12,398 nt of DNA from Chlamydiota bacterium (lineage in GTDB: Bacteria > Chlamydiota > Chlamydiia > Chlamydiales > Simkaniaceae). Position numbers and translations under genes: made by a program. The notes beneath the pieces were generated by a model. It saw only the letters and a program-made list of their open reading frames with translations. It was not told where the DNA came from and did no database searches. This document shows, one piece after another, positions 1,147 to 11,302 of this stretch (positions within the stretch are counted from its first letter, which is position 1; the number at the start of each line of letters is the position of its first letter). Location of the stretch: contig JAAKFF010000047.1 of assembly GCA_011065165.1 (NCBI GenBank), positions 1 through 12,398 on the forward strand, in the 5' to 3' direction.

Positions 1147-1219
1147 GCTGGAGTAGCTCAATTGGTAGAGCATCCGACTTGTAATCGGACGGTTGAGGGT
1201 TCGATTCCTTTCTCCAGCA
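1147..1219 (+). tRNA. tRNA-Thr, anticodon TGT.
   Basis: A manual cloverleaf fold works. Acceptor stem is gctggag/ctccagc with discriminator A. D-stem is gctc/gagc. Anticodon stem is tccga/tcgga with loop cTTGTAa. T-loop is ttcgatt. Length is 73 nt, with no encoded CCA. Confidence 0.85.
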
Positions 1220-1229
1220 TTCCCTATAT

Positions 1230-1311
1230 GGGGGTGTCGCATAGTGGCAATTGCAATGGACTGTAAATCCATCGACTTCGGTCTCCGCCAGTTCGAGTCT
1301 GGCTGCCCCCA
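1230..1311 (+). tRNA. tRNA-Tyr, anticodon GTA (class II, long variable arm).
   Basis: Acceptor is gggggtg/tgccccc with discriminator A. Anticodon stem is atgga/tccat with loop cTGTAaa. The long variable arm is cgacttcggtctcc. T-arm is gccag-ttcgagt-ctggc. Length is 82 nt. The 3' half is duplicated at 9391-9447. Confidence 0.85.
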
Positions 1312-1315
1312 TTTC
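1259..1315 (+). repeat. attL: a 57-bp direct repeat from the tRNA-Tyr anticodon loop to 4 nt past the 3' end.
   Basis: It is identical base for base to 9391-9447. Mismatches flank it immediately on both sides (g1258 vs a9390, c1316 vs g9448). Confidence 0.85.
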
Positions 1316-1372
1316 CTCTATGAAAAACCCATATTAAAATGTGCCAAAATTCTATCGCCTAAAAGTAGCTGA

Positions 1373-1389
1373 GGCACACTCATGGCACA
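1373..1389. promoter_or_regulatory. GGCACA-N5-GGCACA (TGTGCC-N5-TGTGCC on the other strand), a candidate arm-type integrase or RDF binding site near attL.
   Basis: 'ggcacactcatggcaca'. The 18-mer AGGCACACTCATGGCACA at 1372-1389 is identical to 9257-9274. A single extra TGTGCC lies at 1340-1345. Confidence 0.4.
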
Positions 1390-1404
1390 CAACCTAATGA
1401 TTAA

Positions 1405-1944
1405 CTATGACAATTCTTGGCTTGCAAAGCTTTCTTCGGTTTTTTTGAAAGAGTATTGTAGATTCATTAATCTTTGCTTCAGGATTCCAGCTCTGTAGGA
1501 GAAAGCCGTCAAGCTCAAAACAAACAACATAAAAACTGGGTTCCATAATGTGATTTTTAAGATGAGTAAGTCCGACTCATCTTCCAAAGTGAAAAATGAG
1601 TTTAAGTTCTTCGCCTGTAATATGAGGAGCAAAAAGGAAAAGGACAAGAAAAGCAAGTCTTTAGAAATGATAGAAAAGGCATGCTTTATATAGTCAAAAT
1701 CAGTGTATTCAAGAGATTTATCTAGGAATTTATTTATAAAAAATTTCAATGCTTGCAGTAGAATAAATCCAAAAAGCGCTCCGATTAGAGTGAAAAAATA
1801 GAAAATATCTATAGCGTTAAATAAAAGAACTAAACCAAAAGTCGCATAAGCCGAAAATAATAGCCGTTTGCCAAACATTTTTATTTGCTTCCAATTGGGC
1901 GCTTTAGACTTTAAAAGCTGAAGAACATCTCTTTTTACTTCCAT
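1405..1944 (-). CDS. Small integral membrane protein (about 4 predicted TM helices). It is a candidate membrane toxin partner of the upstream Panacea-domain antitoxin.
   Basis: The 179-aa product has four hydrophobic stretches: LLFSAYATFGLVLLFNAI, FYFFTLIGALFGFILLQAL, LLFLSFSFLLLIL and PVFMLFVLSLTAFSY. It starts 14 nt downstream of the antitoxin stop on the same strand, with no SD, which suggests coupling. No recognisable family. Confidence 0.5.
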   Translation of the reverse strand: MEVKRDVLQLLKSKAPNWKQIKMFGKRLLFSAYATFGLVLLFNAIDIFYFFTLIGALFGFILLQALKFFINKFLDKSLEYTDFDYIKHAFSIISKDLLFLSFSFLLLILQAKNLNSFFTLEDESDLLILKITLWNPVFMLFVLSLTAFSYRAGILKQRLMNLQYSFKKTEESFASQELS

Positions 1945-1958
1945 ATGTAGGATAATTC

Positions 1959-2864
1959 TTATAGTGCTTGCGATTCTTTTAGAATACGTAGATTTCTTGC
2001 AGATTCATAGCTAATAAACGATCCTTCTTCTGTTTTTTTGTAAGCTTCTTCTTCATGCGATGTTTTGAGGATTTTTTGTGGTCCGAAGGTTTGATATAGC
2101 TTTAATATAAATTCCAATGTCTCTTTTTCTCTATCTTCGAATAAAGTTGGGTCTGATGGAATTAGTACTTCGTATTTATGATTGTTTATTTTTTTAAGAC
2201 ATCCAGCTTTGACCAAGGCTTCATAAATGGGGCTATATTGATCAGGACAAGGACCAAGTTTTAGGGGTATATATCGAGCTCCAGTTAAGCTTACTCCATA
2301 TTTCTTAAAATGGTAAAAATCGATGTAAAAATGCAGTTTGTTCAGATAAAGAATGGATTCTTTAGTATGCTCAACAAGAAATAAGGCAACATTTTTAAAT
2401 AACTGTAAGTTAAACTTTATATTACCGCTGTATATACCTGGTTCATCTCGCTTCCAGTGAACGCTTAAGAAATTCATTTCAGCCGCAGCTTCGTCACATT
2501 TAAGGCGGATAAGTTCATCTTGACTTGCATCCTGTATATAATATGTTTCCCATCTCTTGATGCTGGCTTCCCCAGCACCCAAATAGCGAGCAAACGCTGA
2601 TTGAGACATCCCTAATTCTTCTCGGTAGGCAATAATTTGAGAAGATGTAAGGAGATTGTGGTTTTCTTTATATTTATCTGCCGAAGCGCGTCGTAAAACA
2701 CTCATTTGTTCCGTATTCATAAGTGGGGTTTGGCAGTTTTCACAAACCGTGCAAGGAACAATAACTTCAAGTGTTTCCCCTTTTATCTCAGGGGTGAAAC
2801 GGATCTTTTTTTCAATAAATTGAGTTTTATTGCATTTCAAGCATTTCATAATTTCTTCTTTCAC
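1959..2864 (-). CDS. MqsA-like antitoxin (N-terminal zinc ribbon plus XRE-type HTH) fused to a C-terminal Panacea/DUF4065-like domain.
   Basis: The N-terminus 'MKCLKCNK...(27 aa)...CTVCENC' aligns by eye with E. coli MqsA 'MKCPVCHQ...CVHCEES'. The HTH 'LTSSQIIAYREELGMSQSAFARYLGAGEASIKRWE' aligns with MqsA 'LSLTQKEASEIFGGGVNAFSRYEKGNAQP'. The C-terminal roughly 190 aa carries 'ILYLNKLHFYIDFYHFKKYG...ARYIPLKLGPCPDQY'. That matches the GepA/SocA Panacea pattern (LxKLLYYAd...f.Aw.yGPV...Y). Its ATG overlaps the stop of the upstream mqsR-like gene by 4 bp (ATGA). Confidence 0.7.
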   Translation of the reverse strand: MKEEIMKCLKCNKTQFIEKKIRFTPEIKGETLEVIVPCTVCENCQTPLMNTEQMSVLRRASADKYKENHNLLTSSQIIAYREELGMSQSAFARYLGAGEASIKRWETYYIQDASQDELIRLKCDEAAAEMNFLSVHWKRDEPGIYSGNIKFNLQLFKNVALFLVEHTKESILYLNKLHFYIDFYHFKKYGVSLTGARYIPLKLGPCPDQYSPIYEALVKAGCLKKINNHKYEVLIPSDPTLFEDREKETLEFILKLYQTFGPQKILKTSHEEEAYKKTEEGSFISYESARNLRILKESQAL

Positions 2865-3253
2865 TCTTTCGAATATTTACATTTATGTAATGATACATAG
2901 TAAAAAAGGCCACCTTTGATAGAGAACTTCAAATACATCTGCTGTCTAAGCTGGTAGCTATACCATGAAAAAGCCCATAAGTCGTGATTTTCAATTTTAG
3001 ACTCATAGCTCTTAAGCGGCGGATAAGCACCTTTATAATCTTCTGGGTGTAGTTCATTGATTAATTTCGAAATTAACTCCCATATTTCATCTGTTTGCCC
3101 TATTTCTAGGTTCATTAATTCTCCCACCACTTTATCGGGGTTGGCAAATGCTACCCGTCTATTTTCTAGAGCTTCCTTTGCTTCTTTTAGTCGCTTGTCG
3201 ATTTCTCTATAAGTAGGACGCTTCACTATTCTTCCTGTATCAAATGACACCAT
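2861..3253 (-). CDS. mqsR: MqsR-family toxin (mRNA interferase-like).
   Basis: An eye alignment to E. coli MqsR spans the whole protein. KRPTYR matches KRTPHTR, EDYKGA matches DFYKSM, HDLWAFSWY matches HTIWQDVY, QMYLKFSI matches QVYLKITV and YYVSLHKCK matches LIVSFKEK. The ORF track starts at a TTG (3256); the first ATG is at 3253. Gene order is toxin then antitoxin, as in mqsRA. Confidence 0.65.
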   Translation of the reverse strand: MVSFDTGRIVKRPTYREIDKRLKEAKEALENRRVAFANPDKVVGELMNLEIGQTDEIWELISKLINELHPEDYKGAYPPLKSYESKIENHDLWAFSWYSYQLRQQMYLKFSIKGGLFYYVSLHKCKYSKE

Positions 3254-3373
3254 CAAATGATACCAAAAACCAATATTTTAAGTCAATTTATGAAAATCAA
3301 TAATTTAAATTACTTATATTAAATATATTAAGTGCAAAAGGTTAGCTAATTCACATGCAAAAAAATATTTTAT

Positions 3374-3390
3374 TGTGCCTCAAATGTGCC
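3374..3390. promoter_or_regulatory. TGTGCC-N5-TGTGCC direct repeat upstream of the integrase promoter. It is a candidate integrase arm-type site or operator.
   Basis: 'tgtgcctcaaatgtgcc'. It has the same half-site and 11-bp register as the sites at 1373-1389 and 9258-9274, in the opposite orientation. It lies about 75 bp upstream of the -35. Confidence 0.35.
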
Positions 3391-3464
3391 TTTCCATTAT
3401 GTAAAGTGCATAATCAGCTTATATTAAGTATCTTGAAAAGAGTAATCGAAAGATTCATACTCTA

Positions 3465-3493
3465 TTGACTGATAAATCTCGTCTTTGTATGAT
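3465..3493 (+). promoter_or_regulatory. Sigma-70-type promoter of the integrase gene (TTGACT-N17-TATGAT).
   Basis: -35 TTGACT is at 3465-3470. -10 TATGAT is at 3488-3493. The spacer is exactly 17 bp. The ORF-track ATG at 3485 sits inside the -10 hexamer. Confidence 0.55.
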
Positions 3494-3517
3494 AGCCAAA
3501 AAATTCTGAGAAAACTC

Positions 3518-4585
3518 ATGGCCAATATACAAGAACGCAAATCGAAAGACGGAAAAACTACCTATAGAGTCCAGATTAGGCTAAAGGGATATCCTTCTCA
3601 AACAGCAACCTTTTCAAGAAAGACTGATGCAAGGAAGTGGGTGCAGCAGATTGAGAGCGCGATTCGAGAAGGACGTCATTTCAAAACAGCCGAGTCCAAA
3701 AAACATACCCTTGGGGACCTTATTGATAGGTACATTAAAACAGTAGTACCTGGAAAAAAGCAGTATGGAGTCACTCAAACAGCCCAACTTCTCTGGTGGA
3801 AGCAAGAGCTTGGGTCTTTTCTCTTGTCTGACATCACTCCAGCACTTATTGCGGAGAAAAGAGACAAACTTCTTCAGGGTTTCACCTATCGTAAGACTAA
3901 GAGGTCTCCATCGACTGTTGTTAGATACTTGGCGGCACTTTCGCATGCTTTTAGCGTGGCTGTTAGAGAATGGGGATGGATTGAAGATTCGCCGGTGAGA
4001 AAAGTCTCGAAGCCTTCGGAGCCTAGAGGACGAGTAAGATTTTTGAGCAGTGATGAGAGAGAAAGACTCTTAGATGTTTGTAAACAGAGTGCTCATCCTT
4101 ATTTGTTCACAGTTGTGGTTTTAGCAATTTCCTCTGGGATGCGTTACTCAGAAATTATGAAACTTACTTGGTCGGATGTCGATTTTGCTAAAAAGCGCAT
4201 CACGTTACATGAAACGAAGAATGGGGAAAGAAGGGTTGTCCCTGTTACAGGTTTTGCTTATGAGCTACTCAAAAAGCATGAAAAGAGTCGACGCATGGAT
4301 ACCTTGCTGCTATTTCCAGCACAAAAGGGACAAAACCCACAAAAGCCTGCTGTTTTGCGTTCTGCTTGGAATCGAGCGCTGGAGCAAGCAAATATTTATA
4401 ACTTTAGATTTCATGACCTAAGACATTCTTGTGCGAGTTATTTAGCAATGAATGGAGCTTCCATTGCAGAGATAGCTGAAGTTCTTGGCCACAAAACACT
4501 TCAAATGGTAAAACGGTATGCGCATCTTTCTGAAGCACATACCGCTTCGGTTATTGAAAGCATGAATAAGAAAATTTTTGGATGA
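3518..4585 (+). CDS. int: Tyrosine site-specific recombinase / P4-type phage integrase.
   Basis: The C-terminal catalytic signature 'HDLRHSCASYLAMNG...LGHKTLQMVKRYAHL' gives the R..HxxR..Y tyrosine recombinase motifs. The N-terminus 'KDGKTTYRVQIRLKG...FSRKTDARKW' resembles the P4-integrase arm-binding domain. The start is moved to the ATG at 3518 (MANIQ...) because ATG 3485 lies within the promoter -10. Confidence 0.9.
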   Translation: MANIQERKSKDGKTTYRVQIRLKGYPSQTATFSRKTDARKWVQQIESAIREGRHFKTAESKKHTLGDLIDRYIKTVVPGKKQYGVTQTAQLLWWKQELGSFLLSDITPALIAEKRDKLLQGFTYRKTKRSPSTVVRYLAALSHAFSVAVREWGWIEDSPVRKVSKPSEPRGRVRFLSSDERERLLDVCKQSAHPYLFTVVVLAISSGMRYSEIMKLTWSDVDFAKKRITLHETKNGERRVVPVTGFAYELLKKHEKSRRMDTLLLFPAQKGQNPQKPAVLRSAWNRALEQANIYNFRFHDLRHSCASYLAMNGASIAEIAEVLGHKTLQMVKRYAHLSEAHTASVIESMNKKIFG

Positions 4586-4588
4586 ATC

Positions 4589-5191
4589 ATGAATGATGAA
4601 AGGAAGAAAGCTAACCTGGAGCAGGAAAAGAGGAGAAACCCATTAAATCTTAAGTGGCTGAAAATAGATTATTTAACACCACCTCAAGCTACATTAATAT
4701 ACTATGGTATTGAACCTTCACGTGATGATTCAAGAAATATGCAAATTATTCAAGCCGTTGATTTCCTTGGAGTGCTTCAGGTTCTTACTGCCTCGGAGTT
4801 TATTTTGGTTCGATTAAATGCCATTAGATTTCCAGAGTTTGTAGCATGGCTGGAAGAAAAAGGGTTTGAGATTCCATCGCATCTAGAATCGATGGCAGAT
4901 ACTGCACGTTTGCAAATAAGAAAAGATGCCCCACTAAAAGGTGAGTTATTAGAGCTTGACACTAGGACGCTTAGGCCTGAGCAGAGATTTAAGTTTTTTT
5001 TACGTTGTTGGGCAGGAGACTATTGGAAGTTAGGTGGCAATATATCTGCAAGTGAGCTTGTAGAATGTAATAATGATTTTAAAAAGACTCGTAGCGATTG
5101 GGAAAACCGTACGAAGAAAAAATATGATGATGATACAATCAAAGGCTGGATTTCGGATATGAGTCCTAAGTCGAAAAAGAACGTATCCTAA
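4589..5191 (+). CDS. Hypothetical protein, tightly coupled to the integrase (3-nt gap).
   Basis: The 200-aa ORF starts 'ggatgaatcATG' directly after the int stop. It has a charged N-terminus and C-terminus. No family recognised. Confidence 0.45.
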   Translation: MNDERKKANLEQEKRRNPLNLKWLKIDYLTPPQATLIYYGIEPSRDDSRNMQIIQAVDFLGVLQVLTASEFILVRLNAIRFPEFVAWLEEKGFEIPSHLESMADTARLQIRKDAPLKGELLELDTRTLRPEQRFKFFLRCWAGDYWKLGGNISASELVECNNDFKKTRSDWENRTKKKYDDDTIKGWISDMSPKSKKNVS

Positions 5192-5429
5192 CGTTTGGTT
5201 TTTTTACCCTCTCGTTAAGTAACTTCATCCCCTTCATCGGTGGAAAATACCCCTCCGCACAACAAGGTATCCCCATCGATAGTATTAATCCTTAGCTCTC
5301 ATTCATAGAGACACCCCCCCTGTTTGGCGAGGAGGGGGTACTGTTATCTTCCAAATCTAGAATTAATTTCCATAATTCGTACTAATAAAGATTGTTCTTA
5401 ATTGAAACCCTAAACCCATGAGGTAAATT

Positions 5430-5660
5430 ATGGAAATAGTACAAAAAAACAAAACTGGACGGCTTTTGTCTGTAGCCCAGTTTGCAATAGAACACCCTGC
5501 TTTTAGCCAGCCAGCTTTGAGGCATCTAATATTTGATGCTGAAGCTAATGGCTTTTGGAAGGTAGTTAGGCGTATCGGAAAGAGAAAAATTTTGCTGGAT
5601 GAGCAAGCTTTTTTCGATTGGGTTAACGAGCAGAATAAAGGAGGTCAAAATGAGTCCTAG
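5430..5660 (+). CDS. AlpA/excisionase-family helix-turn-helix DNA-binding protein. It is a putative regulator or recombination directionality factor.
   Basis: The 76-aa product has 'LLSVAQFAIEHPAFSQPALRHLIFDAEANGFWKVVRRIGKRKILLDEQAFFDWV'. This fits the Xis/AlpA MerR-like wing-HTH pattern (..LS..e.a...gvs..t.yrl...g.fP..ik.G.r.rw...e...Wl). An SD 'gagg' lies 9 nt upstream. Confidence 0.55.
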   Translation: MEIVQKNKTGRLLSVAQFAIEHPAFSQPALRHLIFDAEANGFWKVVRRIGKRKILLDEQAFFDWVNEQNKGGQNES

Positions 5661-6000
5661 AGATATGAGATTGTTAAGAAGTTTGGTCGAAGAGGAAAGG
5701 GTATTTGTACGTGACCTTCGCTCTCGAATTGGGTCTTTAAACCCTGCACAGAATGCACTGTCTTTAAGAAACCAGGAGTGGAGGATTCAAACCGACTATA
5801 TAGGTATTCATGATAGGGACGGAGTCCTCTGTCGACCTGGCTATTACTGGATGGAAGAGAGTGAAAGGGAAAGAGCTCGAATCTTTCTTGAAAAGGCTGA
5901 AAGAGCGGCTGCAACCGCTCCATCAGCAAAACTAGATATTTCAGCTCGCGAAAGCAATAAAACATCTAATTCGAAAGATACCATAGGAGGAAAAGGATGA
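5650..6000 (+). CDS. Hypothetical protein.
   Basis: The ATG at 5650 is preceded by a strong SD 'aaaggaggtcaaaATG'. It overlaps the stop of the previous gene. The ORF track's 5599 start is rejected in favour of this SD-supported start. The product is Arg/Glu-rich and has no recognised domain. Confidence 0.5.
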   Translation: MSPRDMRLLRSLVEEERVFVRDLRSRIGSLNPAQNALSLRNQEWRIQTDYIGIHDRDGVLCRPGYYWMEESERERARIFLEKAERAAATAPSAKLDISARESNKTSNSKDTIGGKG

Positions 6001-7451
6001 ACAGCTTTTCTTCCAATCAAGCCCCCATTCCTTTGGGGGCTGCTTCTATTCCTAAGTGGCCTCAAGATATTTTCCCTGATGAGCTTCAGTCTTTTTTAAA
6101 TGAATTGTCAGCGTCAACGGAAACACCTTTGGAGTTAGCGGCACTTTCTTGTTTTTCAATCCTTGCAACAGCGGCACAAGGAAAATTTTGCGTCCAAATC
6201 GATGCGGGGTACTCTGAGCCGGTCAATATCTGGACGTCTGTTGCACTTCCTTCAGGGAGTCGCAAAACGAGTGTATTCAATGCATTGATGGAGCCCTTGA
6301 TTAGCTGGGAGCGGCAAAAGAAGGAGGAATTAGGGCCTAAGGTAGTTCAGGCTCAATCTGAAAAGAGAACTATGGAGGCAAGGATTAAGGAGTTGCGGCG
6401 CCAGGCTGCATCAGCTAAGTGCGATGAATTTAAAACGCTGAGCCAAGAAATAACTCTTCTGGAATCATCCATGGAAGAGGGAATTATTATTCCACATCTA
6501 TGGACTGCTGACGTGACAGCTGAAACTTTGGCTGTTCTTATGACTGAAAATAAAGAAAGGATGGCAATTTTATCTGATGAAGCAGGAATTTTTGACATTA
6601 TAGGAGGGAGATATTCAAATGGAATTCCAAATTTAGATATTTTTTTGCAAGGGCATGCCTGTAGCCCTTCTCGGGTAAACCGGAAAGGCAAGCCTCCTAT
6701 TTTTCTAGAGAAAGCAACATTATCCGTTGGATTAGTGCCACAACCTGATGTTTTGCAAGGGTTGACAAAGAATCCTCTTTTTCGAGGGAGGGGCTTGCTT
6801 GCTCGATTCTTGTATGCCATGCCTATTTCGAATTTAGGAAATCGCACTTTAGATACTACTCCCATGTCATCATCTTCTTGTGCTAGGTATGAGCAAATCA
6901 TCCATTCCATCCTTGATATTGATGGGAGTAATAAGGTCATTAGCCTTTCTCCTGAGGCATATTCAGAGTGGCATGTATATGCAGTAGCGATTGAGATTCA
7001 AATGAGCGAAGGGGGGCCTCTATGCTTTATGCGGGACTGGGCTTCGAAATTACCTGGGGCCATAGCCAGGTTAGCTGGGTTGCTGCATATTTGTCGTCAC
7101 TCATGTGGAGAGCCGGAACTGGTCGCTGTTAGCATAGTGGATATAAAAGCAGCAATTCGCCTTGGGCATTGCTTAATTGAACATGCAAAGATAGCTTTTG
7201 ATTCTATGGGTGCAGACCCAGCTTTAGATGGAGCAAGGGTAGTCTTAGGATGGATTAAAAGGACCCAACCAGAGCGATTTACCTTCCGTGACTGCCACTA
7301 TGCCCTCAAAAGTCGATTTAAGCGTGCGAAGGACCTTGCTCCATCTATAGAGGTCTTGAAAGAGAGAAATCATATCTTTGAAAAAGATGAGGAAAATAAG
7401 AAGCCCTGCCGTCCCAGTAGAGTTTTTCTGCCAAACCTTATGATTTATTAA
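5997..7451 (+). CDS. DUF3987 (YfjI-like) protein typical of AlpA/P4-integrase islands.
   Basis: The N-terminal region 'FPDELQSFLNELSASTETPLELAALSCFSILATAAQGKF...SEPVNIWTSVALPSGSRKTSVFNALMEPL' matches the recalled DUF3987 pattern (FP..L...v..vae..q.P..LAa...L.a.aaa.qg...EP.NLyt.vvappGeRKS.v). It has a degenerate Walker-A-like 'PSGSRKTS'. Its start ATGA overlaps the previous stop. Confidence 0.65.
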   Translation: MNSFSSNQAPIPLGAASIPKWPQDIFPDELQSFLNELSASTETPLELAALSCFSILATAAQGKFCVQIDAGYSEPVNIWTSVALPSGSRKTSVFNALMEPLISWERQKKEELGPKVVQAQSEKRTMEARIKELRRQAASAKCDEFKTLSQEITLLESSMEEGIIIPHLWTADVTAETLAVLMTENKERMAILSDEAGIFDIIGGRYSNGIPNLDIFLQGHACSPSRVNRKGKPPIFLEKATLSVGLVPQPDVLQGLTKNPLFRGRGLLARFLYAMPISNLGNRTLDTTPMSSSSCARYEQIIHSILDIDGSNKVISLSPEAYSEWHVYAVAIEIQMSEGGPLCFMRDWASKLPGAIARLAGLLHICRHSCGEPELVAVSIVDIKAAIRLGHCLIEHAKIAFDSMGADPALDGARVVLGWIKRTQPERFTFRDCHYALKSRFKRAKDLAPSIEVLKERNHIFEKDEENKKPCRPSRVFLPNLMIY

Positions 7452-7520
7452 GGGTATGGATGAGGTTTTGTGGCTTTTGTCCCTTTTGTTCTAAATATCA
7501 ACCAAAATCGAGAAGATAAT

Positions 7521-8138
7521 ATGCAAAATAAGAATGAATTAGCAGCTGAAAAGAGCTCCCATCTAATACGACCAGAAGCATCCCCTGAGCCCTTTCTAAG
7601 GTTCATCTATGTGAAGAATCCAGAAACGGGAGAGAAGGCTTTAAAAACAGTGGAGCTTTCTGATGGGACGTCTCCTAACGACTCTGGCTTTTTAGAAGGG
7701 GTATTAAAGGCCTTGAAGCGAGCAACAGGTAGTGACAACCCTGAAGTAGCTGAGAGAATTATTTCAGATACAGCTTGGGGGATGTCAAGTAAGGATTCTG
7801 AAGAGAGAATGCATGCTGTTAATACGCTCCTTCCTTCACTGAATCCTCTAGATGAGTCTGAAGCACTATTGCTTGGGCAATTTCTAGCTTTAAGAGACTC
7901 TGGTATGCAGTGTCTGCGTAGAGCAAGTGGTGCGGAAATGCTTTATCACATCAAAGAACTCTATCAGTTGAGCATTAAGCTTATGCGATGTGCAAATGAG
8001 ACAATGCAAACTTTATTGAAATATCGCTCGGGTGGTAAGCAGTTGATTCAAGTCGTCCATGTTTCGGGAGATGGAAAGGCTATTATTGCAAATGAAATGA
8101 ATCTAGGAGAGGGGATCAAAAATAATAATAACGTATAA
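7521..8138 (+). CDS. Hypothetical protein (island cargo).
   Basis: An ORF of 222 aa from 7470, or 205 aa from the ATG at 7521 (MQNKNEL...). No family recognised. It lies in the same orientation and has a short gap to the flanking genes. Confidence 0.4.
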   Translation: MQNKNELAAEKSSHLIRPEASPEPFLRFIYVKNPETGEKALKTVELSDGTSPNDSGFLEGVLKALKRATGSDNPEVAERIISDTAWGMSSKDSEERMHAVNTLLPSLNPLDESEALLLGQFLALRDSGMQCLRRASGAEMLYHIKELYQLSIKLMRCANETMQTLLKYRSGGKQLIQVVHVSGDGKAIIANEMNLGEGIKNNNNV

Positions 8139-8172
8139 CCCCATGTATCATTGAGGCAGGAGGAATTGTATA

Positions 8173-8430
8173 ATGAAAGAGCGGCGATGCCGAGCATATT
8201 CAAAGCGCTCCAAACAGAGATGCAAAAACTGGGCCTTAAGGGGAAAGGGTGTTTGCCGGTTTCATGGAGGGAATTCAACAGGGCCTAAAAGTTCTGAAGG
8301 GAAGGAAAGAGTGTCTAGAGCGCACTTTAAGCATGGTTTGTGTTCATCTTCTTTTCGAAGCAAACTGCTGAGCATGAGAAATTTTATTAAAATTAGTGAT
8401 CGGTTATTGAAAAATTTTACTTACAATTAG
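8173..8430 (+). CDS. HGGxSTG-motif small cysteine-rich protein.
   Basis: 'CRAYSKRSKQRCKNWALRGKGVCRFHGGNSTGPKSSEGKER' gives the C-x..C...C.(R/F)HGGxSTGP.(S/T).EG signature. That family is widespread on phages and plasmids. A strong SD 'aggagg' lies 10 nt upstream. Confidence 0.55.
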   Translation: MKERRCRAYSKRSKQRCKNWALRGKGVCRFHGGNSTGPKSSEGKERVSRAHFKHGLCSSSFRSKLLSMRNFIKISDRLLKNFTYN

Positions 8431-8508
8431 TTTAAAATGTTTTAGTTGTTTCATTTTAATTAATAGTAATGTAAAATCTCTCTAAATAATTCACATTGAA
8501 ATGAACTT

Positions 8509-9003
8509 ATGCATAGACAGTCAAAGAAAATAGTCGTTCTAATCCTATCTGCATGTCTTCTTGTGTTGGCTGGCTGCTCTACTCAATATGGTTCAGAAGG
8601 ATTTATTGGAGGGGGATTTTCGGAAACGCTAATGGCTGCTGATACCTATATTGTTACCTTCAAAGGGAATGGGTTCACTTCATATGAGAAGGCAATCAAA
8701 TATGCTCTCAGAAGAGCTTCTGAGCTGACCCTTGAAAATGGGTACAAATACTTCTCCATTAACTCTTCAATGGACCATTCGAAACAGGTGGCTTACTCAA
8801 ATGCTTCCGCGAATTCTTCCGGTCAGATTGATGTTTATAGGTGCTATAACTCGGTTCTAGGCCAATATAAAGGTTCAGGCTCAAGAAGTTCCTACTCGGG
8901 AATTATTACCAAACCACGAGTCAGCATAGGAATTAAGTGTTATCGAGAGAAGCCAAAAGATATAGAAGTCATTGACGCTAGGTTTTTCTTAGCAAGTAAC
9001 TAA
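8509..9003 (+). CDS. Putative lipoprotein.
   Basis: The N-terminus 'MHRQSKKIVVLILSACLLVLAGCSTQ' has a basic n-region, a hydrophobic core and an LAGC lipobox. It has its own AT-rich upstream region. Confidence 0.55.
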   Translation: MHRQSKKIVVLILSACLLVLAGCSTQYGSEGFIGGGFSETLMAADTYIVTFKGNGFTSYEKAIKYALRRASELTLENGYKYFSINSSMDHSKQVAYSNASANSSGQIDVYRCYNSVLGQYKGSGSRSSYSGIITKPRVSIGIKCYREKPKDIEVIDARFFLASN

Positions 9004-9027
9004 CCTTTTTTTGAACTAGGAGTAATC

Positions 9028-9228
9028 ATGGAAAATAATGAAGAATGGGAAGATGAGACAGAACATGATTTCTCGTCAATCCTTGTTTTTTTGGTAATTG
9101 CAGGTTTTGTAATATGGGTAGGGAGTAATGTTTACTCTGCATTTGAGTGTGAAGCTGAGGAATATTTTTTCGAATCAAAAGAGAACATAAAAGCTTTTTT
9201 TAGGATTATCTTTCAAGGCAGAAGATAA
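9028..9228 (+). CDS. Small single-pass membrane protein.
   Basis: The 66-aa product has an acidic N-terminus and one TM helix, 'ILVFLVIAGFVIWVGSNVY'. An SD 'aggag' lies 8 nt upstream. It sits 24 nt after the lipoprotein stop. Confidence 0.4.
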   Translation: MENNEEWEDETEHDFSSILVFLVIAGFVIWVGSNVYSAFECEAEEYFFESKENIKAFFRIIFQGRR

Positions 9229-9257
9229 GAAATAACGTAGGCTTTAATTTTGTTGAA

Positions 9258-9274
9258 GGCACACTCATGGCACA
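9258..9274. promoter_or_regulatory. GGCACA-N5-GGCACA, a candidate arm-type site near attR.
   Basis: 'ggcacactcatggcaca' is identical to 1373-1389. It lies about 117 bp inside the island from attR. It is embedded in the inverted repeat CACTCA-N11-TGAGTG. Confidence 0.4.
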
Positions 9275-9390
9275 TTTCTGAGTGAAAACCAAGGAAACAT
9301 TGCGAATATTTAGGATAAATTTTAGTTCTTAAGTTTTTGGTTGTTATTTCTTTGAATATCATTAGCTATCATGAGTTGTCCTCAAGAAAA

Positions 9391-9447
9391 GACTGTAAAT
9401 CCATCGACTTCGGTCTCCGCCAGTTCGAGTCTGGCTGCCCCCATTTC
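9391..9447 (+). repeat. attR: an orphan copy of the tRNA-Tyr 3' half (anticodon loop to 3' end plus 4 nt), followed by a T-tract.
   Basis: It is a 57/57 identity with 1259-1315. No 5' half of the tRNA is present. It is followed by 'gttttttt'. Confidence 0.85.
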
Positions 9448-9493
9448 GTTTTTTTAGGTGTTTGGTGCTCTCTTTTTAGTGTCTTTGTCCTAG

Positions 9494-9601
9494 CCCTCCT
9501 CGCCAAGCTCATTCAAGCTTGCCGTCGTCGCGTTAGAACAAATCCATCAAAAAATAGATGCCCCAAACACCCAAAAAAACTCATGGGGGCAGCCGCTGCC
9601 C
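9494..9601. repeat. Copy 1 of an imperfect direct repeat of roughly 100 bp. It ends in a GC hairpin and a T-tract.
   Basis: 'cctcgccaagctcattcaagcttgccgtcgtcgcgttagaaca...acacccaaaaaaactcatgggggcagccgctgccc'. The core matches copy 2 at 9744-9835 with few mismatches. It has the terminal palindrome GGGCAGC-C-GCTGCCC. Confidence 0.6.
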
Positions 9602-10540: not shown

Positions 10541-11302
10541 CTATTTAGATGCGTTTAGGGTTATGAACCAACCCCAATCATCTGGAAAAAATCTGTGTAT
10601 GAATTTGGGGATCTTATCTGTATCATATTTTGTTAGAAGGGGTGTGGCTTCAACTGTACTGAATTGGCGGAATAGATTATTTAATTCAGAGAGTGAATAC
10701 GCTTTGGTGCCTATACTTTCAACGTGATTCCAAATCACATCTCTAGCGCTACGCCAAGGTTTGCCAGCGAGTAAACTGTGCTTTATCCAGAGTTTGATCA
10801 CTCTTAATGAGCGGCGACCGTACATCATCCCAATAAAGAGCCCACTCTTTTTTAACACCCGATGTATTTCACTGATGATGAGTTCGGGATTTTGCGAGTG
10901 GTGGATTACCCCCCAGGAGTAGACTACATCGAAGGTGTTATCGTCATAGGGAAGCTGCTCTGCATCAATTCGTTTCAACTCAGATGATAAGTTGTGCATC
11001 TCAAGACGTTTTTTTGTGGTCAAAATTGCTGCATCGGTCAGATCGACTCCAAAACATTCTGCTCCTGCGCGAGCCCACTGTAGATGATCGGTACCCGCGC
11101 CCACGCCGACCTCTAAGATTTTCTTGCCATGATGGCGAGTAAATTGGGCAGAGGAGTGAATATAGGGTTCTATCTCATACCGATGTCTTTCAACCTTATC
11201 GAAATATTCGAATGAATATTCTTCAGTAGGACCGGTAATAGTTTGTGAGGTGCCACATGGCTCTTTTTCCCAATAGGAGCGAACCCTCTTATTTAAATCC
11301 AT
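10541..11302 (-). CDS. Class I SAM-dependent methyltransferase.
   Basis: Motif I 'ILEVGVGAGTD' is present. Post-I is acidic (FGVDLTD). Motif II-like 'FDVVYSWGVIHH' and motif III 'LKKSGLF' are also present. Its start abuts the SPFH gene stop (11302/11303). Confidence 0.75.
   Translation of the reverse strand: MDLNKRVRSYWEKEPCGTSQTITGPTEEYSFEYFDKVERHRYEIEPYIHSSAQFTRHHGKKILEVGVGAGTDHLQWARAGAECFGVDLTDAAILTTKKRLEMHNLSSELKRIDAEQLPYDDNTFDVVYSWGVIHHSQNPELIISEIHRVLKKSGLFIGMMYGRRSLRVIKLWIKHSLLAGKPWRSARDVIWNHVESIGTKAYSLSELNNLFRQFSTVEATPLLTKYDTDKIPKFIHRFFPDDWGWFITLNASK

Follow-up and report, generated by a model that had tools for sequence, protein, structure and literature searches.

Positions 1316-9390 of the window (the whole stretch of DNA analyzed here, 12.4 kb), together with one 57-nt core, very probably constitute an 8,132-bp, tyrosine-recombinase-borne integrative element located in the 3' half of a tRNA-Tyr(GTA) gene. 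The window is derived from an uncultured marine Chlamydiae genome (a MAG, BioSample SAMN10404973). A sequence-only reading of this DNA had proposed a site-specific island that regenerates its target tRNA, and family-level comparison strongly supports this proposal, although no empty site was found. The island belongs to a family of small islands that combine an integrase with a helicase and carry toxin-antitoxin (TA) cargo; the family is mechanistically ordinary but has not been described before. The integration site comprises the following features:

1147..1219, + strand: tRNA-Thr(TGT), chromosomal context (ARAGORN; Rfam, 73.8 bits)
1230..1311, + strand: intact tRNA-Tyr(GTA), the integration target (Rfam RF00005, 52.4 bits; 1229-1312 by ARAGORN)
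1259..1315, + strand: attL identity segment, the 3' 53 nt of tRNA-Tyr plus TTTC (exact 57-nt direct repeat; junction read directly)
9391..9447, + strand: attR identity segment, the tRNA-Tyr 3' half without a 5' half
9433..9594, + strand: chromosomal right flank, a hairpin of ~160 nt in which the last 15 nt of the tRNA fragment pair with downstream ATGGGGGCAGCC

The tRNA-Tyr(GTA) gene has no encoded CCA, and its pairing with tRNA-Thr is kept in the relatives L084, L094, and L175. A repeat search of the window identified one 57-nt direct repeat, 100% identical between 1259-1315 and 9391-9447 (start-to-start distance 8132), which begins in the anticodon loop of tRNA-Tyr (GACTGTAAATC) and ends 4 nt beyond the tRNA 3' end given by Rfam, or 3 nt beyond that given by ARAGORN. 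Repeat search and direct reading of the sequence agree on the exact 57-bp att repeats described earlier, and the bases directly outside the repeat do differ at both ends (1258 G vs. 9390 A; 1316 C vs. 9448 G). Neither ARAGORN nor Rfam detected a tRNA at 9391, and a local alignment of the whole tRNA-Tyr against the window recovered, at the second site, nothing but the 3' 53 nt, confirming that this copy has no 5' tRNA half. A simple estimate puts the probability that a 57-mer recurs exactly within 12.4 kb at ~7.7e7 × 4^-57, or ~1e-27. The right-flank hairpin (MFE -81.9 kcal/mol, z -6.8) is attB context and lies outside the element; ~110 nt beyond attR are also conserved beside the attR of the sister island L180. 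In the proposed mechanism, an element-borne attP would recombine with the tRNA-Tyr(GTA) 3' half via the tyrosine recombinase; since attP would hold a copy of that 3' half, the tRNA would be regenerated at attL and a partial copy would remain at attR.

Both ends of the element harbor putative integrase arm sites:

1316..1389, + strand: conserved left arm (five-island alignment A3)
1373-1389, + strand: left copy of the arm-type motif GGCACACTCATGGCACA (GGCACAC-N4-GGCACA), 57 nt from the core
9258..9274, + strand: right copy of the motif, 116 nt (about 110) before the core and in direct orientation relative to the left copy (repeat search and alignment A4)

Within the left arm, CTCTATGAAAA adjoins the core and is followed by TGTGCCAAAA. 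The GGCACACTCATGGCACA motif is invariant among the five islands of A3, including the tRNA-Leu island, and was matched twice in the window, whereas 0.03 matches are expected; GGCACAC-N4-GGCACA is found on both arms and is invariant across the sister islands. Its position and conservation suggest a role in recombination, in which the conserved N-terminal domain of Int would bind these arm sites, 57 nt and about 110 nt from the core, while the catalytic and core-binding domains would contact the core itself.

The conserved backbone consists of seven genes, and all seven ORFs are intact:

3518..4585, + strand: int, 355-aa tyrosine recombinase (PF00589, 4.3e-36; phrog_1, 4.9e-77)
4589..5191, + strand: orf200, 200-aa backbone protein (syntenic in sister islands, 29-35% identity)
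5430..5660, + strand: orf76, 76-aa Xis-like winged-helix protein (excisionase fold)
5650..6000, + strand: orf116, 116-aa backbone protein (gene call in L083; 49-55% identical in L084 and L088)
5997..7451, + strand: DUF3987 protein, 484 aa, without a primase domain (PF13148, 1e-88; phrog_2373 'DNA helicase', 1e-58)
7521..8138, + strand: orf205, 205-aa backbone protein (gene call in L083; 44% identical in L088)
8173..8430, + strand: HGGxSTG-domain protein, 85 aa (NF041373, 47.1 bits vs. a cut-off of 29)

The Int residues R209-K234-H299-R302-H325-Y334 are invariant across 26 homologues (alignment A2), and the protein is 100% identical to an NCBI entry named 'Tyrosine recombinase XerC [Chlamydiae bacterium]'. 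Its earlier description as P4-type was rejected: Int lacks the Arm-DNA-bind_3 and Phage_int_M domains of CP4-57 IntA, to which it aligns at 24% identity over 150 residues of the catalytic domain only. The putative AlpA-like HTH protein, orf76, proved excisionase-like only by fold and has no sequence relationship to AlpA, matching neither the AlpA nor the HTH_17 Pfam model. It accompanies int across different replication modules and, from its fold, is a candidate recombination directionality factor that would serve as the excisionase. No family match was obtained for orf200 in Pfam, NCBIfam, PHROG, and PADLOC searches, and the end of orf116 overlaps the start of the DUF3987 gene by 4 nt. The HGGxSTG gene had been taken as cargo; however, its homologues follow orf205 in L088 and lie inside the aligned block of L181/L183, and this conservation together with the backbone in sister islands argues against free cargo.

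The DUF3987 assignment is borne out by the PF13148 match and by homology to E. coli YfjI (26% identity over 427 aa, E 8e-34). The protein also shares 50% identity with the DUF3987 portion of a Toprim-DUF3987 protein of 720 aa from Nitrosospira and is predicted to be a replicative helicase or initiator; DUF3987 proteins are predicted helicases of mobile genetic elements (PMC5862659). A candidate origin is formed by an inverted pair of 9-nt-periodic repeats:

4318..4344, + strand: arm A of inverted repeat I1, inside int, with units AGCACAAAA GGGACAAAA CCCACAAAA
7466..7492, + strand: arm B, 15 nt after the DUF3987 stop codon, with units TTTTGTGGC TTTTGTCCC TTTTGTTCT, the candidate ori iteron set

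The repeat spans 27 nt with 93% complementarity and has an inverted-repeat score of 24, compared to a mean of 10.8 and a maximum of 16 in shuffled sequences. The 9-nt-periodic units of arm A translate as QKGQNPQK, and this arm is conserved in L181, L084, L088, L092, and L094, while TTTTGTGGCTTTTGT is near-invariant in the non-coding DNA 3' of DUF3987 in five islands, including that of Nitrosospira (alignment A7). The pair, split between the int coding region and the sequence just after DUF3987, may represent a replication origin, and the excised circle would be replicated by the DUF3987 helicase/initiator from the iterons just 3' of its gene. The origins of SaPIs are located directly downstream of rep (PMC9371898), and this positional match was counted in favor of the replication step. 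The roles proposed for the arm motif, orf76, DUF3987, and the iterons are suggested only by position, fold, and conservation.

The remaining genes and their control region flank the backbone:

1405..1944, - strand: TM179, 179-aa multi-pass membrane protein, third gene of the TA operon
1959..2864, - strand: fusion antitoxin with an N-terminal MqsA-type Zn-ribbon and HTH_3 and a C-terminal SocA/Panacea domain
2861..3253, - strand: MqsR-like toxin, 130 aa, RelE-superfamily fold (AF2 model)
3257..3517, no strand assigned: AT-rich divergent control region between the toxin operon and int (GC 0.257)
8509..9003, + strand: predicted lipoprotein, 164 aa, with signal peptide ...LAGC
9028..9228, + strand: single-pass membrane protein, 66 aa, variable cargo (sister islands have a 195-aa gene in its place)

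The TA module recognized earlier is retained and can be specified as an MqsR-fold toxin upstream of an MqsA-HTH-Panacea fusion antitoxin, whose start the toxin gene overlaps by 4 nt. The toxin did not match any family in Pfam, NCBIfam, or PADLOC, but its AF2 model (pLDDT 85) is closest in the PDB to MqsR 3hi2_B (prob 1.0, TMt 0.64, E 5.7e-3), with HigB, ParE, YafQ, and RelE ranking next. The antitoxin exceeds the cut-offs of TIGR03830 (78.1 vs. 61.8 bits) and PF13274 (53.9 vs. 25.7 bits), and the pairing of this toxin with MqsA-Panacea is kept in L175, L177-L179, and L180-L183. TM179 has no family match and varies among relatives: L178 and L181 retain it in part, and in L175 it is a pseudogene. 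The best promoter-like hexamers of the window are located at 3286-3257 (-) and 3465-3493 (+), although these are consensus matches only and are not enriched compared to shuffled sequences. The lipoprotein and the small membrane protein are cargo, as proposed earlier. The latter is swapped in sister islands, whereas the former is shared with sister islands, where it lies within a 78% nt block common to L180-L183, and with the remnant L175, whose lipoprotein has 64% protein identity. The TA pair may stabilize the element, with the lipoprotein and small membrane proteins as probable passenger genes.

The mosaic base composition reported earlier was also found here, as GC is 0.341 in the left arm (1316-3484), 0.419 in the backbone (3485-8430), 0.354 in the right cargo, and 0.438 in the flanks. 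Copies of this TA cassette are found outside islands as well. Any separate acquisition of the TA module, as previously suggested, would however be old, because nt identity to sister islands is similar for the TA arm (76.6%) and the backbone (78.2%).

Sister islands with the same backbone occupy tRNA-Tyr or tRNA-Leu sites and are flanked by 55-76-nt repeats of the tRNA 3' half; wherever the junctions are on the contig, both this duplication and the same arm motif are present. L084 (int 78% identical) contains a 7,658-bp island at a tRNA-Thr/tRNA-Tyr site with a 65-nt repeat at 92% identity, and its block from int to DUF3987 has the opposite orientation with respect to the att arms, an inversion that the simple model does not explain. 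L088-L090 (int 70% identical) carry three copies of a 76-nt tRNA-Leu 3' half in a tandem layout of an 8.1-kb island and a 2.5-kb islet, while L094 (int 73% identical) has a HEPN TA pair at tRNA-Thr/tRNA-Tyr. In L082, a Phd/Doc-type islet that has the same left end is enclosed by two tRNA-Tyr 3' halves at a distance of 1,638 nt. Four more assemblies from other samples, L180-L183, contain the TA-backbone-lipoprotein element (76-78% nt identity), and their attR has both the core and the arm motif; int is split in L181 (112 + 238 aa), and this contig starts and stops 30 nt inside the core, as expected from a k=31 unitig break at the repeat. In L175, tRNA-Tyr is followed by the TA genes and lipoprotein, whereas the backbone has been deleted and attR lost, and this locus is a fossil of the same element type.

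The search for an empty site in related genomes, as proposed in the sequence-only reading, returned none: the exact attB junction pattern had 0 matches in JGI metagenomes, the nearest GTDB genome is not syntenic, and the proteins of the window flanks are present on one contig only. An excised circle was not seen either. Assembly duplication of the 57-bp repeat, considered earlier as a refutation, is very unlikely because both copies are present in a second assembly (ENA scaffold_2359; 10 differences over 12.4 kb) and because unrelated assemblies have the same architecture with non-identical (92%) copies. The second assembly is from the same BioSample and hence does not represent an independent organism. 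The window does come from a MAG, and this is the sole other assembly with identical flanks; nevertheless, a mis-join or collapsed repeat in the metagenome bin is scarcely credible, as the two assemblies agree across both junctions, the architecture recurs, with its own variants in both copies, in six or more further assemblies of different samples, and the conserved arm motifs lie at fixed distances from both copies.

Three further readings concern the nature of the element. It is conceivable, though unlikely, that the element is a phage satellite (PICI, PICMI, or PICI-like tycheposon) that excises, replicates with DUF3987, and is packaged by a helper phage, with the HGGxSTG protein or orf205 possibly redirecting packaging. 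Such a lifestyle would refine the transfer step and does not conflict with integration. Its int, Xis/AlpA-fold protein, and DUF3987 'primase' correspond to the mandatory genes of the PICMI model (PMC10803314), and 8.1 kb suits a satellite. IMG/VR contigs carry integrases of 62-64% identity, each accompanied by an orf76 homologue, but many non-viral integrative elements are found in IMG/VR; likewise, the HGGxSTG protein has weak PHROG matches, including the TerS family (8.9e-5), but the TerS-like matches arise from a generic winged helix. Apart from small Microviridae, no phages of Chlamydiae are known to have been described, which we counted against this reading. Moreover, the Pfam, NCBIfam, PHROG, and PADLOC searches revealed no recognizable genes for a capsid, portal, terminase, or other morphogenesis function, the phage collection yielded only distant DUF3987 helicases (≤34% identity), and a chlamydial pangenome paper mentions no prophages.

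That the island is a fixed, immobile cryptic remnant held by its TA module is doubtful. The island is present in both assemblies of the sample without empty-site reads or contigs, its relatives decay (L175 without backbone and attR; L181 with a split int), and obligate intracellular bacteria have few opportunities for transfer. However, the 57-nt copies are still identical whereas those of L084 have drifted to 92%, the seven backbone ORFs are intact, the Int catalytic residues are conserved, and both arm motifs are perfect; in addition, at least two tRNA targets in Chlamydiota, variable cargo, and tandem arrays point to recent activity of the family. Accretion of a CIME-like TA/lipoprotein islet without integrase onto an int-DUF3987 element, such that the repeats bound two histories, is improbable. 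It would account for the GC difference between the arms (0.34 and 0.35) and backbone (0.42), the integrase-less att-flanked TA islets of L082 and the third segment of L088, the contiguous TA and lipoprotein genes of L175, and the TA cassette of L178, which is 86% identical to that of the window and lies outside any island. On the other hand, no internal att remnant was found (the best internal core match scores 20-30 vs. a shuffle maximum of 28), and the gene decay in L175 (TM179 pseudogene) fits deletion rather than an ancestral state. L180-L183 share the TA-backbone-lipoprotein arrangement at near-uniform divergence (76.6% and 78.2%), so that any fusion would predate their split and the whole would now move as a unit.

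Cis-mobilizable elements and tandem accretion at att sites are known from the CIME/ICE concept developed for ICESt1/St3. The relatives L088 and L082 likewise have att-flanked integrase-less islets beside an integrase-bearing element, whereas the window island has two att copies only and no internal att remnant. The TA operon resembles mqsRA in placing the toxin gene first and in the MqsA CxxC-CxxC Zn-ribbon and HTH (TIGR03830) of the antitoxin, and PanAT in its C-terminal Panacea domain, the hallmark of PanA antitoxins. In contrast to MqsRA, the toxin sequence is not matched by Pfam MqsR_toxin, and the third gene of the operon encodes a membrane protein. To our knowledge, a complete MqsA-type DNA-binding module fused to a Panacea domain has not been described.

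The CP4-57 cryptic prophage of E. coli K-12 (intA, yfjH, alpA, yfjI) shares with this element its insertion into the 3' end of a gene for a small stable RNA, the gene order int, small wHTH, and DUF3987 protein, and TA cargo; however, CP4-57 is 22 kb in size, located in ssrA, and has a P4-like IntA, compared to 8.1 kb in tRNA-Tyr here. PICMI and Gram-negative PICI-type satellites are similarly small (6-9 kb), bounded by direct repeats, and without capsid genes, with a shared core of tyrosine integrase, small excisionase/AlpA-fold protein, and DUF3987 replication protein (int, alpA, and DUF3987/DUF5906 'prim' in PICMI) (Barcia-Cruz et al., 2024, PMC10803314). PICMI are located next to fis with 17-bp repeats, whereas the present elements are found in tRNA-Tyr/tRNA-Leu with tRNA-derived repeats (57 nt here), the Chlamydiota host has no known helper phage, and orf76 falls outside the AlpA/HTH_17 models. 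Tycheposons of Prochlorococcus and other marine bacteria also use a tyrosine recombinase and integrate at tRNA genes, with one complete and one partial tRNA at their borders (Hackl et al., bioRxiv 10.1101/2020.12.28.424599). Tandem arrays, degenerate remnants at the same tRNA, a primase/helicase module with an excisionase, and variable cargo are further common traits. Part of the definition of tycheposons is an integrase lineage of their own. The tycheposon integrase is located at the element end and faces inward, whereas the integrase here lies 2.2 kb inside, behind the TA cargo, and the nutrient-acquisition genes carried by tycheposons contrast with the TA modules, membrane proteins, and lipoproteins carried here.

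The window carries a real, intact, site-specifically integrated element of 8.1 kb, which is one member of a recurrent family.

Genes of the island and adjoining tRNAs
1147-1219: tRNA-Thr(TGT), by ARAGORN
1229-1312 (ARAGORN) or 1230-1311 (Rfam): intact tRNA-Tyr(GTA)
1405-1944, minus strand: 179-aa membrane protein (TM179), third gene of the three-gene operon (toxin, antitoxin, TM179) adjoining attL
1959-2864, minus strand: 301-aa antitoxin, MqsA-type Zn-ribbon/HTH (TIGR03830, 78.1 versus a cut-off of 61.8) plus PF13274
2861-3253, minus strand: 130-aa putative toxin
3518-4585, plus strand: 355-aa tyrosine recombinase (int; PF00589, 4.3e-36)
3' of int, plus strand: orf200, orf76, and orf116, in that order
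Plus strand: 484-aa DUF3987 protein (PF13148, 1e-88; PHROG "DNA helicase")
Plus strand: orf205, then an 85-aa HGGxSTG-domain protein (NF041373)
Plus strand: 164-aa lipoprotein, then a 66-aa membrane protein, the last island genes

The sole 57-nt direct repeat reported by a repeat search of the window is 100% identical between its copies at 1259-1315 and 9391-9447 (spacing 8,132 nt) and extends from the anticodon loop to 4 nt beyond the Rfam 3' end of tRNA-Tyr. The two copies of this core, attL and attR, diverge at once outside the repeat (G1258 versus A9390; C1316 versus G9448), and no tRNA 5' half was found before the second copy by ARAGORN, Rfam, or local alignment in the window. By our own arithmetic, the expectation of an exact 57-mer pair arising by chance in 12.4 kb is ~1e-27. 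The repeat search and inspection of the sequence confirm the exact 57-bp repeat, the mismatches just outside it, and the missing 5' half described in the sequence-only reading, and the integration into tRNA-Tyr that it proposed is upheld by the intact tRNA at one end, the exact 3'-part repeat at the other, the intact integrase, and homologous islands. The window derives from the NCBI MAG "Chlamydiae bacterium K1060chlam2" (proteins NGX51169-71). Both repeat copies are also present in the ENA assembly, a second assembly of the same BioSample and not a second organism, which differs from the window at 10 positions, one at 6066 and nine clustered at 719-790. Because homologous islands each have tRNA repeats of their own, the pattern is a recurrent one arising from site-specific recombination, not an assembly accident, and the mechanism of the island is that of a conventional site-specific integrative element.

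Several observations concern the flanks. The cluster of nine of the 10 assembly differences spans 72 nt just downstream of a match to the Rfam family group-II-D1D4-7 at 576-690, which is below threshold (27.2 bits versus a gathering threshold of 34, E 0.019), and a 600-aa gene of the ENA assembly ends near window position 476. Across the window, Rfam found only the two tRNAs, along with weak group II intron and snoRNA matches below threshold. A 74-aa ORF with a SEC-C motif (889-1113; PF02810, 3e-11) lies directly upstream of tRNA-Thr, and the protein collection contains no entry identical to its product. To the right of attR, the chromosomal flank at 9433-9594 forms a predicted hairpin of ~160 nt (MFE -81.9 kcal/mol, z -6.8), in which the last 15 nt of the tRNA fragment pair with ATGGGGGCAGCC. 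The hairpin unit is partly duplicated ~250-380 nt downstream (9475-9542/9727-9794 and 9575-9628/9951-10004), and the first ~110 nt past attR are conserved beside attR of the sister island L180. This hairpin could be the terminator of a tRNA operon, or else a repeat of MITE-like type.

The integrase retains the catalytic residues R209, K234, H299, R302, H325, and Y334, which are invariant in an integrase alignment (A2), and thousands of close homologues share 64-85% identity with it. It had been called P4-type, but Arm-DNA-bind_3 (DUF4102) and Phage_int_M are absent, and only PF00589 and a weak Int_N are matched. A domain search of the CP4-57 integrase IntA matches both missing domains, and pairwise alignment of IntA with the window integrase gives 24% identity over 150 aa (E 0.004). 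The description of orf76 as AlpA-like holds for the excisionase/AlpA fold but not for the Pfam models PF05930 and PF12728, both of which the protein fails. On IMG/VR contigs and in Nitrosospira, the integrase is accompanied by orf76 homologues despite a different replication gene, as expected of an Int-Xis pair. Betaproteobacteria and IMG/VR contigs (L095-L098) contain integrase relatives of 62-67% identity, all of them with an orf76-like gene and paired with interchangeable replication modules: a Zn-ribbon plus Toprim-DUF3987, Toprim-DUF927, Toprim-AAA_25, or a DnaD-like initiator. The IMG/VR relatives came from an alignment-based scan only, and a single-sequence scan of IMG/VR with the integrase returned no match. 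The Nitrosospira sp. Is2 element (L092 8130-15042, CP137134.1) adjoins tRNA-Met, and no long direct repeat was detected in it.

Inside the attachment sites, the 17-mer GGCACACTCATGGCACA occurs twice in direct orientation in the window (1373-1389 and 9258-9274; 0.03 expected), at 57 nt inward from attL and 116 nt inward from attR. Its motif GGCACAC-N4-GGCACA shows no variation among the related islands, the one in tRNA-Leu included, and keeps the same distances in all of them; it is a candidate arm-type site that would serve either Int, through its strongly conserved N-terminal part, or the excisionase. The island end abutting the core (CTCTATrAAAA) is likewise conserved. In an excised circle, the arm motifs would flank the core and form an attP module of ~250 bp.

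Sister islands share this organization to varying extents. A 327-kb chlamydial contig (L084; int 78% identical) has tRNA-Thr and tRNA-Tyr followed by a 7,658-bp island bounded by a 65-nt tRNA-Tyr 3'-half repeat with 92% identical copies, and the island carries the same backbone, a different, Panacea-based toxin-antitoxin (TA) pair, and an ankyrin gene as cargo. Compared with window 1259-9447, L088, L094, and L180-L183, its int-to-DUF3987 block and adjacent TA pair (L084 3822-11565) have the reverse orientation with respect to the tRNA, the core, and the two arm motifs; evidently, the attP module and the remainder of the element can be joined in either orientation. On a 1.9-Mb contig (L088-L090; int 70% identical), the backbone resides in tRNA-Leu(TAA), with three copies of the 76-nt tRNA 3' half, an 8.1-kb island, and then a 2.5-kb integrase-less islet with a Gp49/HTH_37 TA pair. 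Another locus (L094) has tRNA-Thr and tRNA-Tyr, then a HEPN-type pair and an int of 73% identity. The loci from four other samples (L180-L183) encode TA, int, orf200, orf76, orf116, DUF3987, orf199, HGG, and lipoprotein as in the window, with nucleotide identities of 76.6% over 1444/1903-4611 and 78.2% over 5302-8999, and this group has the tRNA-Tyr core and arm motif at attR (tRNA-Tyr attR in L180/L182). At L181 2388-3455, gene calling splits int into two ORFs (112 and 238 aa), owing either to a frameshift that has made it a pseudogene or to a sequencing error in a Logan contig.

Reduced forms also occur. A search with the tRNA 3'-end 27-mer found two tRNA-Tyr 3' halves 1,638 nt apart (L082 1-1886, SDBT01364844.1), enclosing a 1.6-kb integrase-less islet whose left end is homologous to that of the window island. 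The islet contains genes for an AbrB/Phd-like protein and a protein with a Doc/Fic motif (HPFIDGNKR), together with an ORF of 207 aa that includes a LAGLIDADG-like motif (YIAGILDGEGS). Since both tRNA fragments lack a 5' half, there must be a further element upstream. In a Simkaniaceae MAG (L175 5337-7822, JAAUYI010115666.1) and at L176, the same tRNA-Thr/tRNA-Tyr pair is followed by a pseudogenised 5' piece of TM179, the antitoxin and toxin genes (78.5% nucleotide identity), and, immediately after them, the lipoprotein gene (76%). Neither the backbone nor an arm motif was found at these two loci, and a second tRNA fragment is likewise missing (the L175 tRNA-fragment alignment did not exceed shuffles); they are a fossil of the same island type.

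At an empty site, tRNA-Tyr would be followed by the right-flank sequence GTTTTTTTAGGTG (variant AGTTTTGTAGTA in L180). No empty site was found by a pattern search of JGI metagenomes, a GTDB flank scan, or flank-protein look-ups. An exact 77-nt pattern joining the tRNA 5' part, core, and right flank had 0 matches in the JGI metagenomes, and the nearest match of the flanking methyltransferase in GTDB was a Simkaniaceae MAG (70% aa identity) that is not syntenic and, at the expected position of tRNA-Tyr, has tRNA-Ala. Of five flank proteins submitted to exact look-ups and 90% clusters, four returned the source scaffold only; close relatives of the flank SET protein are on contigs <3 kb only, and the junctions in the relatives L175 and L178 differ from the expected empty site. 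The tRNA-Tyr 3'-end 27-mer had no match in IMG/VR. An excised circular form was not seen either: the ends of the L181 contig lie 30 nt inside the core on both sides, as expected of a k=31 unitig stopping at a repeat, and are explained by this k-mer break. Accretion was tested by searching the island for an internal, degenerate att site, and none scored above shuffles.

The mosaic base composition noted from the sequence is borne out by GC contents of 0.341 (1316-3484), 0.419 (3485-8430), and 0.354 (8431-9390), versus 0.438 in the flanks. The TA arm is about as diverged from the sister islands as the backbone is; its separate acquisition, if real, would therefore be ancient. The HGGxSTG protein had been counted as cargo but belongs to the backbone, and a literature search for "HGGxSTG" returned no papers. 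PADLOC matched none of the island proteins to a defence system. Beyond the "integrase", "DUF3987", and antitoxin domains, putative roles are assigned from fold, position, and conservation.

The TA call stands, with an MqsA-type plus Panacea antitoxin and a toxin model of MqsR fold. The antitoxin, encoded after the toxin, has a CxxCG-CxxCG Zn-ribbon and HTH (TIGR03830) and, at residues 174-276, a SocA/Panacea domain (PF13274, 53.9 bits versus 25.7); the adjacent toxin ORF lies upstream with a 4-nt overlap. The putative 130-aa toxin has no Pfam match at E<=10, and none of its 56 homologues, almost all chlamydial, has a Pfam domain. Its AF2 model (pLDDT 85) best matches E. coli MqsR in the PDB (3hi2_B; probability 1.0, TMt 0.64, E 5.7e-3), followed by the HigB, ParE, YafQ, and RelE toxins. 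Given the toxin-first order and the MqsA-type antitoxin, the module fits an MqsRA-like system, in which the antitoxin would have gained a Panacea domain. The membrane protein TM179 was considered as the Panacea-neutralised toxin and rejected, as the pair conserved across contexts is the 130-aa protein and the antitoxin, whereas TM179 is missing or degenerate in L175 and has diverged in the other contexts. This pair is kept in the sister islands, the remnant L175, and L178. At L178 9913-11873 (ATLA15-1 scaffold_1720; also noted with L177 and L179), the toxin/antitoxin/membrane-protein cassette is 86% identical in nucleotides to that of the window, with no tRNA, integrase, or arm motif nearby. 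The host of L178 has the SET, DUF378, ADK, and ATP-grasp synteny of the window's right flank, and its cassette is closer to the window's than are the surrounding housekeeping genes (65-75%). The cassette thus also persists, or moves, outside islands.

The DUF3987 call is likewise sound (PF13148, 1e-88). The protein is a homologue of CP4-57 YfjI (26% identity, E 8e-34) and shares 50% identity with the DUF3987 portion of a 720-aa Toprim-DUF3987 protein of Nitrosospira sp. Is2. It has no exact match on record, which is explained by the single G/A difference from the ENA scaffold at 6066. In mobile elements, DUF3987 domains stand in for known helicases beside primases (PMC5862659). Absent from the sequence-only reading and new here is a conserved inverted pair. 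The sequence TTTTGTGGC TTTTGTCCC TTTTGTTCT at 7466-7492, 15 nt past the DUF3987 stop, is the inverse complement of a 9-nt periodic stretch in int at 4318-4344 (27 nt, 93% complementary). The 9-nt periodic repeats of the pair resemble ACAAAAGCC, and the int copy encodes QKGQ(K/N)PQKP. The pair is near-invariant, and its relative placement is shared by L181, L084, L088, and the Nitrosospira element, the betaproteobacterial island included; in L084, both arms share one variant (GCTACAAAA and TTTTGTAGC).

Arms of the inverted pair in related islands
L181 (sister island): 3188-3214 and 6345-6371
L084 (327-kb contig): 5962-5987 and 9122-9144
L088 (tRNA-Leu island): 10811-10827 and 13981-14007
L092 (Nitrosospira element): 10818-10836 and 14500-14514

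SaPI origins consist of short iterons directly downstream of rep (PMC9371898), and by this analogy the repeat set downstream of DUF3987 is probably an ori. The inverted pair as such may be an ori or a long-range RNA/DNA pairing element.

The family recurs in many environmental chlamydial assemblies, with at least two tRNA targets there, tandem arrays, and remnants. It is apparently undescribed in Chlamydiota, as full-text literature searches found no description of small tRNA-targeting integrase/helicase islands in Chlamydiae. The described mobile elements of Chlamydiae are few, namely plasmids, one Protochlamydia conjugative island, the C. suis tet island, and microviruses. The conjugative island of Protochlamydia is a single large one (PMC548262). 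The recurrence, the two or more tRNA targets, the arrays and remnants, and the very close integrase kin in other phyla make the family a usable marker of gene flow into and between intracellular bacteria. Its integrase, attP, and excisionase may be a source of tools for genetically hard-to-manipulate organisms, and its TA module shows, in nature, a fusion antitoxin of MqsA-Panacea type alongside a putative toxin of MqsR fold. Members occur in Chlamydiota, a MAG labelled Verrucomicrobiota, and Nitrosospira, with integrases 62-85% and DUF3987 proteins ~50% identical. It is, in our judgement, improbable that the islands make up one family spanning phyla and consisting of minimalist, self-replicating satellites or of tycheposon-like elements. 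If it were so, DNA exchange among obligate intracellular chlamydiae would involve a vehicle not yet recognised, for instance vesicles or an undiscovered helper phage, and the 9-nt iteron pair would be a new device tying replication to integrase expression or recombination.

No capsid or packaging gene is recognisable in the window island, and the phage collection yielded distant DUF3987 helicases only. The mandatory set of PICMI comprises int, alpA (PF05930/PF12728), and a DUF3987/DUF5906 "prim" (PF13148/PF19263) (PMC10803314). The window island shares int and the PF13148 protein, whereas the alpA position is held by orf76, which agrees in fold only and fails both Pfam models. PICMI integrate downstream of fis, whereas the window island lies in tRNA-Tyr and the window has no fis gene. 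Tycheposons target tRNAs, are flanked by partial tRNAs, form tandem arrays, and carry pri/hel modules (bioRxiv 10.1101/2020.12.28.424599). The window matches their full and partial tRNA flanks, and related loci include arrays (L088, L082) and a remnant (L175), but their integrase placement is unmatched, as int lies 2.2 kb from attL behind three cargo genes, reading away from it, and 4.8 kb from attR. With CP4-57 the element shares DUF3987/YfjI but lacks Arm-DNA-bind_3, Phage_int_M, and AlpA (PF05930). The TA module shares the antitoxin type and toxin-first order of MqsRA and, as in PanAT, has a PF13274 antitoxin next to a toxin gene. Full membership in the PICMI/PICI, tycheposon, or CP4-57 class is not established, since each comparison falls short in one or more defining features. 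The nearest models for how the element works are PICMI/PICI-type satellites, tycheposons, and the int-alpA-yfjI segment of CP4-57.
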